This document shows positions 48,885-53,062 of a stretch of DNA of 64,000 nt, one piece after another. Below the pieces are notes generated by a model. It made no database searches. It saw nothing but the letters and a program-made list of their open reading frames with translations, and had not been told where the DNA came from. The translations under genes and the position numbers were made by a program. The DNA is from a virus, in the IMG/VR virus record IMGVR_UViG_2974637116_000001; one strand, given 5' to 3'. Positions within the stretch are counted from its first letter, which is position 1. Each line of letters starts with the position of its first letter.

Positions 48885-49178
48885 ATGGATAACCCAAAGA
48901 AAGAGGAAGCCAAAACGGAAAATAAATTTGAGTGGGCGGATGAGGGTGTATCAACTCTCGTCCGAGTTATTATTCTTGGTTGGTCAGCAGCAATTCTGAC
49001 TCTTAATTATGTAACTGTTCCTGGCGTTCCTCAAAAAAACATCGATCCAACTTTTATTGCCAGTGTGTTCACTGGAACTTTAGCTACGTTCGGGGTCATG
49101 CCTTCTAAGAAAAAGAAGGATGATGAAGAACCAAAACAAGCACCTACAGTGGAGAAGAAAGATGCAAAAAATGATTAA
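48885..49178 (+). CDS. Small two-TM membrane protein (97 aa)
   Basis: Two hydrophobic segments flanked by charged termini, with a basic 'KKKKDDEE' tail. Confidence 0.7.
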   Translation: MDNPKKEEAKTENKFEWADEGVSTLVRVIILGWSAAILTLNYVTVPGVPQKNIDPTFIASVFTGTLATFGVMPSKKKKDDEEPKQAPTVEKKDAKND

Positions 49179-49395
49179 TGGTGTCGCATTATTATCTGGT
49201 CTAGTTTCTTTATCTATCGTAGGGGGTGGTGCTTATCTATACACACAAAAGGATGCACTCATTGAGAGTGCTACAGCAGCAGCAACAAAGGCAGCAACCG
49301 AAGCAGTAACTAGTGCCCTTCCTGGGATGCTAGACGCTGCAATGCCAGAAGTACCTGAACTGCCTGGTGCAACTGGTGGCGCATTGCCATTCTAA
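49162..49395 (+). CDS. Signal-anchored membrane protein (77 aa)
   Basis: MQKMINGVALLSGLVSLSIVGGGAYLY..., then an Ala/Pro-rich region. Confidence 0.7.
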   Translation: MQKMINGVALLSGLVSLSIVGGGAYLYTQKDALIESATAAATKAATEAVTSALPGMLDAAMPEVPELPGATGGALPF

Positions 49396-49397
49396 TC

Positions 49398-50042
49398 ATG
49401 GATATATTTAATCCTAAGAAAAAAGAGACCGAGCAAGTTACCGAGCAAGTCACCGTGCAAGTACCGAGCAAGTCGCCCGTCAAGGGTATTGCACTTGCAC
49501 TAGGAGCATTGGTTGGTATTTCTCATATTGGACTTTTAGGATATGTGGTCAGGGACAATACTCCTAAACTGAGAGAAGTCCCTACTATCAATATTCCTAG
49601 AGGAGACTATTCATCCTATACTATCAAAGCAGGTAAGGATGGATATGAGATTGAATACCGAGCAAACGATCCTGCTATCTTAGAATCACAGAGGTCATTA
49701 TCTTCTGATGTTAATAAGAAAGGATTCTTTGGTGGTGGCACTGAGTCTCGTCGTGAGTGGCGTGTTGACCAGTTCACTATGGACGGCACACGCAACCTAG
49801 GAGGTGCCGTAGAAGACGGCGAGGGAAAGTCTGCGAAAGATATAGAGTGCATCGTGGCGGACGCTGGAGCACGGTCTCAAGGTGCAATGGCAGGTAGTGC
49901 CCTTGCTGCTGGTGTTGCTGTTCCTGCCCTTGCTAGCATCCCCTACGTGGGTTGGTTAGCAGGTGGATGGGCATTGCTACTAGGACAGAAAGCAGGGTCG
50001 AGTCTTGGATCTCAAGTTGGTAGTGTATTTAATGACTGCTGA
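49398..50042 (+). CDS. Membrane protein with a C-terminal glycine zipper (214 aa)
   Basis: N-terminal TM 'GIALALGALVGISHIGLLGY'; C-terminal 'GAMAGSALAAG...AGSSLGSQVG'. Confidence 0.7.
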   Translation: MDIFNPKKKETEQVTEQVTVQVPSKSPVKGIALALGALVGISHIGLLGYVVRDNTPKLREVPTINIPRGDYSSYTIKAGKDGYEIEYRANDPAILESQRSLSSDVNKKGFFGGGTESRREWRVDQFTMDGTRNLGGAVEDGEGKSAKDIECIVADAGARSQGAMAGSALAAGVAVPALASIPYVGWLAGGWALLLGQKAGSSLGSQVGSVFNDC

Positions 50043-50830
50043 TGGACATTCAGAGAATAGGGACGAGTAAAATTACAGTAGGTAAACTAAACATACCTGA
50101 GGTTAGGACATATCCAGAACCTGTAACCTCACAGTTTAGTGCTCCACCTGTCACTGTTAATATAGGACTCCCTATTGTCAATATACCAGGATGCGTTGAA
50201 GCAAACTCTGCTAATAATAAAAACGAAAGTTTATTAATAGATGATGATCCTGTAATTATTTGTGATGCTGGAACTCCTAGTTTCAATCCAATTAACTACG
50301 AACCAAATCAAATGGTTATGACTGGACCACCACCAGTGAATCCAGTTAAACCTAAGAAAGAAGCAACAGATACAAAAGCACCAGGTACACCACCACCGCC
50401 ACCTACTCCACCACCACCAAACATTCAGTGTCCTACTCAAGAACAGTTATCTAAAGAACCCGTGGGGTTCCTGTTTGATGGTGGACGCAAAGAAGTATTA
50501 GGATACAAGTTGGTTGGAGACCAATGTATCCGAGAGGTAGGTGATGTACCTATCATTACACAAGTAATAAATGGATTACCCCCAACTGGTGTTGTGATCA
50601 CCACTGGGGGTATTGCTGTAGTTGCTACTACATCAGCATTGCTTGCTAAACCATTTGCTGACATTCTTCTGAAGGTAATCAAACCTACAGTGAAGAAAGT
50701 TATTAAAAAGATTGCTGCTATCCGTGGTAAGAAAGTTAAGGTCTTGTCTCTAAGGGAGCGCCAAGTAGAGCAGCGTCATCGGAATCAGGCAATACGGGTA
50801 TTGAAGTCGGCACTGAAACCGAAGGGATAG
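50042..50830 (+). CDS. Pro-rich protein with a C-terminal TM and basic tail (262 aa)
   Basis: 'TPPPPPTPPPP', several Cys, hydrophobic 'GVVITTGGIAVVATTSALLA', then a K/R-rich end. Confidence 0.7.
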   Translation: MDIQRIGTSKITVGKLNIPEVRTYPEPVTSQFSAPPVTVNIGLPIVNIPGCVEANSANNKNESLLIDDDPVIICDAGTPSFNPINYEPNQMVMTGPPPVNPVKPKKEATDTKAPGTPPPPPTPPPPNIQCPTQEQLSKEPVGFLFDGGRKEVLGYKLVGDQCIREVGDVPIITQVINGLPPTGVVITTGGIAVVATTSALLAKPFADILLKVIKPTVKKVIKKIAAIRGKKVKVLSLRERQVEQRHRNQAIRVLKSALKPKG

Positions 50831-51632
50831 AGTGACGATGTTGCTTGACAGTAGTTACATTTTGCACCACAACGTCAGCACATATTTTATAGTAAGGACT
50901 TCTGGGGTGGAAACTGATTCCTTCTTTCATTAGATTTCCACAATTCTTAAGACGAGCAATCTCAAAATCCAATCTTTTATTGGCAGTCAGTTGTTTCATC
51001 ATCTCAATGTTAGAAGTTGCTGCTTCTTTACAAAGGTCTTGCAGTTTCTTATCAGTGGGTGTGCTCCATGTCATAGAGAAACCTACACCCAGACTGTAGT
51101 TATCTTTCTGTCCTGTTCTAGTCTTTTTGTAGAAACTTATATCACCAGGATTATCTAAGATACCATCTCCCATTGGATTCCCGTCAGAATCGTAGGCACC
51201 AAAGTTATCGGTGACATCGTATACTGGATCGTCGTAATAGTCTTCGTATGGTTTAGAAGCAGAGACACTTCCTGTTACATACGGTGTGAAATTGCGAGTG
51301 GGACCTTGACATTGTATACCTCCACCGTAGGTATTTGTAATGTATGGTCCCTGTAAAACCTGAATAGCTTGGTTTGTAACGGAGCCTGAACTATTAGCGA
51401 CAGGATTAGCAGTAGCAGACACACCACCAACAGTTTCAGCATAAGAAGGATTAGCGAATAATAAAGTTACTGCGAGAAGATACTTGTAGTGTCGGTTATG
51501 CTTGTAACCTCGGTTGTTCTCTGGATAATCGTTTGGTTGCTTAAACCAGGTCCGCTGTAAGTTTCTGTGAACTGAAACGCTCCTCCTGGTGTCGTCTGTG
51601 TGTATGTCGGTTTGCTTGTTACACCCGTCCAT
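50736..51632 (-). CDS. Exported hypothetical protein; start uncertain
   Basis: Signal peptide 'KYLLAVTLLFANPSYA|ETVGG' begins near 51485. The only upstream in-frame canonical start is the ATG at 51632, inside the previous gene. Confidence 0.7.
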   Translation of the reverse strand: MDGCNKQTDIHTDDTRRSVSVHRNLQRTWFKQPNDYPENNRGYKHNRHYKYLLAVTLLFANPSYAETVGGVSATANPVANSSGSVTNQAIQVLQGPYITNTYGGGIQCQGPTRNFTPYVTGSVSASKPYEDYYDDPVYDVTDNFGAYDSDGNPMGDGILDNPGDISFYKKTRTGQKDNYSLGVGFSMTWSTPTDKKLQDLCKEAATSNIEMMKQLTANKRLDFEIARLKNCGNLMKEGISFHPRSPYYKICADVVVQNVTTVKQHRHSIPSVSVPTSIPVLPDSDDAALLGAPLETRP

Positions 51633-51904
51633 GATGATGTCACTCCGTCAATAGTTACATTAGTTGCACCAACACCTGGTGAGAGGTTGCCCGATGCATT
51701 GACACCAGAACCAGTAGCAGAATACTGATACCCAGTGTTATAGTCCATGCTATTTATTGTCTCAGTTATGGTCTGAGTTGTCTCCGTTCTTGATGTCATA
51801 CTTCCCTGAGTGAAGTTTGGGACCACGGGGACCGCCAGGGCAGGAACAAGTGTGACACTTGCACCCACCACAGCAAGGGCAGACCAACGAATCATCTTGA
51901 TCAT
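51467..51904 (-). CDS. Exported Thr-rich beta protein (145 aa)
   Basis: AGGAG RBS; signal peptide '...VPALA|VPVVPNF'. Confidence 0.75.
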   Translation of the reverse strand: MIKMIRWSALAVVGASVTLVPALAVPVVPNFTQGSMTSRTETTQTITETINSMDYNTGYQYSATGSGVNASGNLSPGVGATNVTIDGVTSSWTGVTSKPTYTQTTPGGAFQFTETYSGPGLSNQTIIQRTTEVTSITDTTSIFSQ

Positions 51905-51915
51905 TGCTCCTATCC

Positions 51916-52419
51916 TCAGTCAATTACAGTGATCTCAGCTACATATTGGCCAGTTGCAGTCGTGCCAGCACCACCAGCAGTCACGGTGAGAAGACCTGCA
52001 GAGGTGACTGTACCTGCTAATGTACCTGCTGAACCAGCAGTATAAGAAGTGGTATTGGAGAAGTTAGGAACATCTCCTACAGTAGGAGCAGCAGTTGGGA
52101 TTGCATCACCTTGAGTATAAGACTGAGAGAATGTGAAAGCAGATTCTGCAGTTCCTTGGACTGCTTCAATAGTACCAGGAGAATAAATTCCATTGGTAAT
52201 AGTGCCAGTAGAAACAGCATCTGCTGTGGTGCCATCAGTAGTGCCGATGTTTGTTCCTGAGATACTAAATGAGGAACCAATTCTCGTTGCCTGAGTTCTA
52301 GCAGCATCAACCGTCAGTTGAACACTAGCGGAATGTGAACTCACCAATCCACCTGCATTTGCTGCACTTGCAGTCACTAATAGCATAACGATAGGTAAAA
52401 ATTTAGTCATTTTTTCCAT
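51916..52419 (-). CDS. Exported Thr/Gly/Ala-rich beta protein (167 aa)
   Basis: Signal peptide 'MTKFLPIVMLLVTASAANA|GG'; ends in the beta-strand 'GQYVAEITVID'. Confidence 0.75.
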   Translation of the reverse strand: MEKMTKFLPIVMLLVTASAANAGGLVSSHSASVQLTVDAARTQATRIGSSFSISGTNIGTTDGTTADAVSTGTITNGIYSPGTIEAVQGTAESAFTFSQSYTQGDAIPTAAPTVGDVPNFSNTTSYTAGSAGTLAGTVTSAGLLTVTAGGAGTTATGQYVAEITVID

Positions 52420-52503
52420 CGAGTTTTGTCTAATACTATGTAGGTGAGGTATTCCTTACATAGAGGTTCGGGATATTACACAATGCATTAAACTATAGAC
52501 TTG

Positions 52504-52532
52504 TTAAATAATATTGGTTGCCTTCGGGGACC
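52504..52532 (+). promoter_or_regulatory. Late promoter plus 5' cUUCGg hairpin of the hsp20 leader
   Basis: TTAAATA (52504-10), then GGTTGCC-TTCG-GGGACC (52516-32). Confidence 0.6.
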
Positions 52533-52567
52533 ACACAACAAACTCGCTTTAATTAGGAGCATAACAA

Positions 52568-53062
52568 ATGACGGGACTTAGAAAGTTCACGACGAAAGAT
52601 CTTAATGCAGTGGTAGATGCTGCAGAAAAATACTCAGTAGGATTCGATGATCTGTTTTACAGACTACATTCCTACGGGATGGGAAGTGTTAATGAAGCAT
52701 ATCCTCCATACAATATTGTACAAGAATCTAATATTAAATGGAGAATTGAATTAGCACTGGCAGGGTGGGCACCAGAGGAAGTTGAAGTTACTACTGAGAG
52801 TAATGTTCTTTTAATCAGATCGATTGCACCAAAGAATAAAGGTGAGGAGGAATATGTACATAGAGGCATCTCCACTCGCACTTTTGCTAGAGGGTTTAAT
52901 CTTTCAGATGATGTAGAAATCGGCACAGTCAGTTTTAATAATGGGTTGCTTGTGGTAGAATTACGGAAGATCATTCCTGAGCATCAGCAATTAAAGGTTT
53001 ATGAAATCCAAAGTTCTCAACTACCTGAAAGTGATAGTGTGCCATCCAGCGACACACTATAA
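52568..53062 (+). CDS. hsp20: Small heat-shock protein
   Basis: 'YPPYNI', 'IELALAG', 'YVHRGISTRTFARGF', 'NGLLVVEL'. Confidence 0.95.
   Translation: MTGLRKFTTKDLNAVVDAAEKYSVGFDDLFYRLHSYGMGSVNEAYPPYNIVQESNIKWRIELALAGWAPEEVEVTTESNVLLIRSIAPKNKGEEEYVHRGISTRTFARGFNLSDDVEIGTVSFNNGLLVVELRKIIPEHQQLKVYEIQSSQLPESDSVPSSDTL

Follow-up and report, generated by a model that had tools for sequence, protein, structure and literature searches.

Same-strand overprinted genes are known from several phages. Examples include genes B within A, and E within D, of phiX174, MS2 L, and Rz1 within Rz of phage lambda. A different kind of precedent, for long presequences, comes from type V autotransporters. Here, the Sec signal is preceded by an N-terminal extension, the ESPR (Pfam PF13018), a conserved motif of about 25 residues with a small hydrophobic stretch, and the presequence reaches 50 residues or more. 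Overprinted phage genes have been reviewed (PMC8227390). In the present work, we consider a gene of the Syn9 gp165 family, referred to as gene C, in 64,000 nucleotides of viral DNA (IMG/VR record IMGVR_UViG_2974637116_000001). This whole stretch is called the window. It belongs to a T4-like cyanomyophage and has 97% identity, locally, to Synechococcus phage S-MbCM6 / ACG-2014c. Gene C is the last of three co-oriented genes (A, B, and C) on the minus strand. We conclude that C very probably starts at an ATG inside B, with its first base at position 51632, and that this out-of-frame overlapping start is maintained by selection.

Like the overprinted phage genes above, C would use an internal start in another frame of the upstream gene, and both frames appear to be kept open by selection. 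Synonymous codons that would create stops are depleted, and the overprinted part is basic and probably disordered. There are also two differences. First, the overprinted stretch is an N-terminal extension, in front of an existing signal peptide, rather than a new protein or domain. Second, the position of the C start differs by clade (64, 112, 166, or about 310 nucleotides) while always being on a Trp codon. Internal initiation in another frame is a textbook mechanism, and the B/C case is only moderately surprising. What we add are the rule linking the start to Trp codons, a charge test, naturally occurring variants free of overlap, and a podovirus pair.

The original prediction, made from the letters of the window, was that the signal peptide of C lacks a nearby start codon. 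This observation is correct in every detail. There is no in-frame ATG, GTG, or TTG between ATG 51632 and a GTG at 51422. The first codons of the signal peptide are dual-coded with the last codons of B (ACT ACA AGT ATC TTC TCG CAG TAA). The C frame, which is -1 with respect to B, is open from ATG 51632-51630, 166 nucleotides inside B, to a stop at 50738-50736. Likewise, the B/C overlap of this genome has no slippery heptamer of the form X_XXY_YYZ. To account for these features, three options had been put forward: a long dual-coded leader, a -1 frameshift making a fusion, or re-initiation at an unusual codon. The first is supported by an invariant ATG, a frame free of stops from that ATG onwards, and fixed synonymous sites upstream. 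The second and third fared poorly, as detailed below.

The comparison began with 80 relatives from IMG/VR, fetched using the mature part of C and having 69-94% protein identity. For 73 of these, the C frame could be traced back to an ATG within B. The remainder are either truncated contigs or examples of two architectural variants. Removing duplicates from the 73 relatives with the overlap layout, and including the window, left 69 distinct sequences. We refer to these as the proximal clade, and counts out of 69 concern this set. The overlap between B and C is 166 nucleotides in most relatives, and 169 or 172 in a few. The same layout is found in reference phages of many Kyanoviridae genera. 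Two outcomes had been named that would overturn the original prediction: orthologs with a normal ATG beside the signal peptide, or translation beginning at 51422 with a protein that is not exported. The comparison did not overturn it on either count. Among these relatives there is no such ATG, and start-type codons are absent, in all 69 sequences, from the interval 8 to 35 codons before the cleavage site. In turn, position 51422 is occupied by a freely drifting Val codon (GTG 23, GTA 21, GTT 15, and GTC 10).

The location of the C start can be understood from the register of the two frames. Each codon in the C frame takes its first base from the third position of one B codon, and its other two from the start of the following B codon. 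For NTG to occur in the C frame, B must have a TGN codon, specifying Trp, Cys, or a stop. Mature B has no Cys and only a single Trp, at residue 92. Hence, no standard start for C is possible between Trp92 and the stop codon of B. This need for a TGN codon is why the C start lies so far upstream. The Trp bearing the start provides the only TGN codon of mature B in most loci: 63 of 69 in the proximal clade, and 52 of 53 in a second clade described below. The B/C pair is a clean natural example of one reading frame limiting another; the host gene must supply a Trp or Cys codon wherever a -1 frame start is to be placed.

Comparison of relatives indicates that the open C frame, its start codon, and the region upstream are all under selection. 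Inside the overlap, none of 3805 C-frame codons is a stop. In the rest of B, stops account for 331 of 6230 codons (5.3%) in the same frame. The third frame, within the overlap, contains 5.4% stops. Note that a C-frame stop arises wherever T, as the third base of a B codon, is followed by a B codon beginning AA, AG, or GA. At such stop-prone synonymous sites, T occurs 0 times in 724 inside the overlap, compared with 29.9% of the 1106 outside it. The picture changes upstream of the C ATG. The nearest in-frame stop is 5 codons away in 43 of 69 relatives, and the 48 codons before the ATG have between 1 and 8 in-frame stops, with a mean of 3.9. Judged in this way, the stop-free zone begins at ATG 51632. 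Both frames are open, and conserved in diverged relatives, as expected for an out-of-frame overlapping pair.

The A of the start codon is the third base of B codon 91, and its TG comes from Trp92. Among relatives, codon 91 can be TCA (40), ACA (17), AAA (7), AGA (4), or CAA (1). The encoded residue varies (Ser, Thr, Lys, Arg, or Gln) while the third base is A, and the C ATG is kept, in 69 of 69 sequences. We also inspected four-fold degenerate positions of B, using the 91 alignment columns with enough codons of this type. Only 2 of the 91 are invariant: the A of the ATG, and the G of GTG in the hexamer GGAGTG, which resembles a Shine-Dalgarno sequence. In the hexamer, Val is encoded by GTG in 69 of 69 relatives and Gly by GGA in 60 of 69. 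Other Val and Gly columns vary freely. A conserved start in the second frame is, in this way, accompanied by selection at synonymous sites of the first, which is a further property of overlapping pairs. The RNA around the C ATG of the window folds more weakly than shuffled versions (z = +1.6), and the C start is in a zone of low RNA structure in both clades.

A further Val codon, two codons upstream of GGAGTG, is GTA (51658-51656) in 56 of 57 relatives. Together, AAT and this GTA (51656-51661, minus strand) spell ATG-TAA in the third frame, 24 nucleotides before the C start. The AAT-GTA element might end third-frame translation ahead of the start or, alternatively, might be part of an AU-rich ribosome-binding region.

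The second, distal, clade consists of P-SSM2, S-SSM7, S-SM2, and 56 distinct P-SSM2-like IMG/VR loci. In these phages the proximal ATG is absent. Instead, the C frame remains open for about 105 codons, to another ATG, and the overlap is 307-328 nucleotides long. As in the proximal clade, the ATG sits on a Trp codon of B (GGA/TGG in 48 of 48). Furthermore, the overlap has no stops among 5821 C-frame codons, and T is found at 0 of 1154 stop-prone sites, versus 31% outside. In 54 of 56 loci, an in-frame stop is located 2-4 codons upstream of the ATG (locus L091 is one example from this clade). Hence, whether this stretch of B is free of -1 frame stops depends on whether the clade needs it to be.

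Other starts and arrangements were also found. In phage S-H38, the C start is at ACA/TGG, 64 nucleotides inside B. The T7-like Prochlorococcus podovirus P-RSP2 (L090:1433-2298) has a diverged B-C pair with the same out-of-frame overlap. Here, the only C-frame start is a GTG, at CCG/TGG, 112 nucleotides inside the upstream gene. That gene ends with SVFSQ and a stop codon, resembling the SIFSQ and stop of B, and P-RSP2 C is annotated from a point after the signal peptide. We conclude that the B-C module is common to myoviruses and podoviruses. Across clades, the C start has moved between Trp codons of B, bringing a leader of anything from 13 to about 105 residues. The two architectural variants lack the overlap altogether. 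In locus L014 (L014:1860-2500), about 560 nucleotides are inserted between the B stop and the C signal peptide, and there is a degenerate second copy of the B 3' end (HNRYSKSLLAV). This looks like a natural uncoupling of the overlap. In locus L065, there is no B upstream of C. Both have a C ATG of their own, 8-12 codons before the hydrophobic segment, generating an ordinary signal peptide.

A box similar to T4 late promoters (ATAAATA; 51751-51757, minus strand) is located inside B, among codons for ETINS, 119 nucleotides upstream of the C ATG. Among the 69 loci of the proximal clade, only 21 have a box. In the P-SSM2-type clade, ATAAATT is found 26 nucleotides before the distal ATG in 38 of 57 loci, and ATAAATA in one more. 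In some lineages the box may serve C as an internal late promoter; alternatively, it could just be Ile-Asn codons.

The long form of C comprises a basic leader of 49 residues, a signal-like segment of 16 residues, and a mature part of 233 residues. The first six codons of the signal-like segment share their DNA with the last five codons, and stop codon, of B. Cleavage by signal peptidase I is predicted after Ala65, so that mature C would start ETVGGVSAT. As in Sec signals, there is a hydrophobic core (LLAVTLLFA) followed by small residues at positions -3 and -1 (SYA/ET). The usual placement of a Sec signal, at the extreme N-terminus with a short positive n-region (about 20-30 residues), is not found; the presequence is 65-74 residues in the proximal clade and 116-136 in the distal clade. 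At position -1, the 69 relatives have A (64), S (4), or G (1) and, at -3, all but one have S, A, V, or T. Extending this to all 129 sequences examined, -1 is always A, S, or G, and -3 is S, A, V, or T in 99%. The sequence of the hydrophobic segment varies freely and the residues after it are invariant (almost all of G69-G103 in pre-C). By this pattern of variation, the segment looks like a working signal peptide.

The leader has a mean net charge of +7.5 in the relatives. Synonymous resampling of B, with stops avoided, gives +4.3, and the charge is higher than this in 96% of loci. The excess fits a positive n-region but, because the sequences are related, is suggestive only. We also considered a Tat signal, which would have an S/T-R-R-x-F-L-K motif directly before the hydrophobic core, and rejected this. 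The TRRSV sequence of the window is separated from the core by about 30 residues, and most relatives have RS in place of RR. The arrangement is similar to that of ESPR-bearing autotransporters in having a Sec signal preceded by an N-terminal extension. Conversely, the leader is longer than the ESPR, at 49 to about 105 residues, its conservation is weak, and the other frame has shaped its sequence. Pfam gave no match to ESPR, and membership of the ESPR group was rejected, there being no support from Pfam or PHROGs.

From these comparisons, we infer initiation at ATG 51632, export, and cleavage after Ala65. In this scheme, ribosomes would start at ATG 51632, in the -1 frame, with GGAGTG 10 nucleotides upstream in weakly structured RNA. 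They would then read 49 codons that also encode B residues 92-140, producing the basic, probably disordered, leader. The short hydrophobic segment would follow, with its small-x-small motif, completing a presequence of 65 residues. The positively charged leader would stay in the cytoplasm while the hydrophobic segment engages Sec. Finally, signal peptidase I would free the mature protein (ETVGG...), which would then be located outside the cytoplasm. Should export be confirmed, few bacterial Sec signals would be longer than these presequences of 65-136 residues, which would also offer a handle on how the cyanobacterial Sec system copes with long basic N-terminal extensions.

Several points weigh against this interpretation. 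The relatives are not phylogenetically independent, and our counts overstate the number of independent events. A presequence of 65 (or 116-136) residues is far longer than a normal Sec signal, and both export efficiency and the cleavage site are predictions. Four-fold degenerate sites have an entropy of 1.17 bits in the overlap and 1.35 bits outside (p = 0.03), such that the leader sequence is weakly constrained beyond avoidance of stops and charge. The leader may have no function of its own. Weak RNA folding at the C start is consistent with a start site but not discriminating, because other parts of B also fold weakly. A scan of positions 50500-52700 for sigma-70 promoters and terminators gave no minus-strand signal upstream of A, B, or C that exceeded shuffled expectation, and did not identify a promoter for the A-B-C unit. 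Similarly, literature searches covering the overlap, gp165, or proteomics found, in the library searched, no description or test of the overlap, and no ribosome profiling, N-terminal peptide, or immunoblot evidence for the C start.

Other explanations must be set against a start at ATG 51632. The best placed, although very unlikely, is a non-canonical start, such as AAG 51485, next to the signal peptide, or else re-initiation once the B stop has been passed, with the upstream open frame left untranslated. This would provide a presequence of textbook length, and having the B stop inside signal peptide codons does suggest coupling. However, the removal of stops over 55 codons (about 105 in the distal clade), in a zone bounded by an ATG, is left unexplained. 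So are the invariance of that ATG and the fixed synonymous sites upstream. Moreover, no near-cognate codon is conserved before the hydrophobic segment, where several loci have LH, FN, or IN in place of KY.

A programmed -1 ribosomal frameshift, yielding a B-C fusion exported by the signal peptide of B, is also very unlikely. Frameshifting would be expected to involve a conserved slippery heptamer and a downstream frame with no start of its own. Neither is found. No X_XXY_YYZ heptamer is present in the overlap of 68 of 69 relatives, the single hit being private to one locus, and a selected ATG opens the -1 frame in every clade. While C is exactly -1 of B, and open throughout the overlap, as a frameshift would demand, no ATG is needed for this mechanism. 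Yet, 69 of 69 proximal and 48 of 48 distal loci retain the ATG, despite amino acid changes in B, and in each clade only a few codons separate the ATG from the beginning of the stop-free zone. Inside a fusion protein, a variable hydrophobic segment with a conserved small-x-small motif would have no role. Loci L014 and L065, where C has its own ATG and is not overlapped by B, also argue against frameshifting.

We consider it highly improbable that translation begins at GTG 51422, as assumed for KJ019027 and similar records. The product would be a cytoplasmic protein and the 'signal peptide' a relic. This GTG is the first standard start codon after the B stop, and the resulting short form is found in several GenBank records and phrog_1755. 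However, only 23 of 69 relatives have the GTG, and the GTA, GTT, or GTC of the others would be unable to start translation. In addition, every lineage has kept the hydrophobic segment, and the motif at -3 and -1, despite sequence variation, as working signal peptides do. Lastly, a sequencing or assembly error, or a private mutation removing a normal start, has nothing in its favour beyond the oddity itself, deserves virtually no credence, and is refuted because metagenomic relatives assembled independently (73 of 80 in one set and about 56 in the other), as well as isolates of many genera, have the same architecture.

Returning to a start at ATG 51632, we asked what the dual-coded leader might do. 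It seems unlikely that the basic leader is functional, rather than a passive by-product. The leader is probably dispensable, and present owing to the overlap, because L014 and L065 do without it; these two loci argue against an essential role. Conversely, the leader may be under selection, as hinted by a charge above that of the stop-free synonymous null. If functional, the leader could slow or gate export, or affect sorting between plasma and thylakoid membranes in the cyanobacterial host. Alternatively, the start internal to B could fix a low C:B ratio. After cleavage, the leader could also persist as a second product, in the form of a basic, membrane-anchored, cytoplasmic peptide.

The B/C pair shares some properties with Rz/Rz1 spanin pairs. 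In both, two envelope-targeted proteins are encoded with an out-of-frame overlap, and the downstream gene begins within the upstream gene and runs past its end. The differences are as follows. C has no lipobox Cys and instead has a signal peptidase I-type motif (SYA/ET). B has a cleavable signal and a Thr/Ser/Gly-rich body, whereas the upstream spanin protein has an N-terminal membrane anchor and a coiled coil. Genes of the Rz1 type start directly at their signal peptide. We rejected the possibility of a spanin pair, given that there is no Cys at, or near, the C cleavage site and that B and C match no named spanin family in Pfam or PHROGs.

Table 1. Features of the A-B-C region. Positions are those of the window.
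Feature	Position	Strand	Details
C start ATG	51630-51632	minus	On B codons TCA/TGG (Ser91-Trp92; Trp codon 51629-51631)
GGAGTG, Shine-Dalgarno-like	51641-51646	minus	B codons Gly-Val; GGAG ends 10 nucleotides before ATG
B/C dual-coded overlap	51467-51632	minus	166 nucleotides; last 55 codons of B also read as C leader
Pre-C leader, residues 1-49	51486-51632	minus	Hydrophilic, basic; no confident predicted structure, predicted local distance difference test score (pLDDT) < 40
Signal-peptide-like segment KYLLAVTLLFANPSYA	51438-51485	minus	Pre-C residues 50-65; then ET
GTG start of some GenBank records	51420-51422	minus	Not a conserved start
Gene A	51916-52419	minus	'OMP1' in some GenBank records; T4-GC 237; phrog_564, E 2.7e-79
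Gene B	51467-51904 (ATG 51904; TAA 51469-51467)	minus	145 residues; DUF6322; T4-GC 236
Gene C, long form	50736-51632 (stop 50738-50736)	minus	298 residues; Syn9 gp165 family; T4-GC 235
Gene D	50042-50830	plus	Convergent to C; T4-GC 234
C/D tail-to-tail overlap	50736-50830		95 nucleotides; from the open reading frame list

The features discussed are listed in Table 1. Genes A, B, and C are flanked by hsp20 on one side and, on the other, by convergent genes for membrane proteins. Gene A is the first of the three, each of which is predicted to encode an exported protein. Gene B matches Pfam family PF19847 (DUF6322; E 2.5e-41) with 140.7 bits, against a gathering cut-off of 30.6. The match spans profile positions 1-100 and reaches the last residue of B. 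There is also a match to phrog_650 (E 6.4e-71). B has a predicted, cleavable, N-terminal signal peptide of its own and is conserved through to its end in 50 relatives. Gene C matches phrog_848 (E 6.5e-152) over residues 1-296. The protein Atlas clusters matching C are viral only and are named 'Gp165 family'. The label T4-GC 235 is found in notes of the NC_019444 and P-SSM2 records.

From 48885 to 52419, the minus-strand genes A, B, and C, for exported proteins, are opposite several plus-strand genes for membrane proteins. No holin, endolysin, or spanin signatures were recognised in this interval. The gene set corresponds to a conserved mobile cassette described by Sullivan et al. (2010) and made up of T4-GCs 218, 219, 234, 235, and 237. 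These form a mobile cluster, encoding hypothetical proteins, in all cyanomyophages compared except S-PM2 (Sullivan et al. 2010, PMC3037559).

Searches for the function of C were also done. There was no significant family in Pfam, and a profile search of the PDB produced 0 hits. For the long form, AlphaFold2 gave a mean pLDDT of 46.5. For mature C, with a more diverse alignment, the pLDDT was 64.3 and the model has a beta-rich region followed by a 40-residue helix. Foldseek found nothing in the PDB at E <= 0.001 for the C model, and a wide VIA fold search found only matches with Z < 4, to the long helix.

Databases disagree on how C and its neighbour should be annotated. The long form, beginning at the same ATG, is found for S-CAM8 (gp165, SXFG_00195), S-RIM2 (RW340905_158), P-TIM68 (AIR93553), P-SSM3 (PRAG_00052), and S-RIM12. 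The 166-nucleotide overlap is already annotated in several long-form GenBank records of C. In the KJ019027, P-SSM2, and S-WAM1 records, C is started after the signal peptide. B is omitted from S-SSM7, S-SM2, and SynMITS9220M01, and C is omitted from S-T4. PHROGs has both a long-form (848) and a short-form (1755) family for C. In total, public records contain at least five treatments of this conserved cassette gene that are incompatible with one another: long C, short C lacking its signal peptide, C missing, B missing, and B truncated. The disagreement arises because the C start is hidden inside B. The comparative evidence picks the long-form model, and this changes the predicted location of C from cytoplasmic to exported.

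The 3' end of C overlaps the convergent gene D. In nearly all relatives there is an overlap of this type, of 20-233 nucleotides (mostly 92-125). Hence, with B at its 5' end and D at its 3' end, C shares DNA with its neighbours on both sides.

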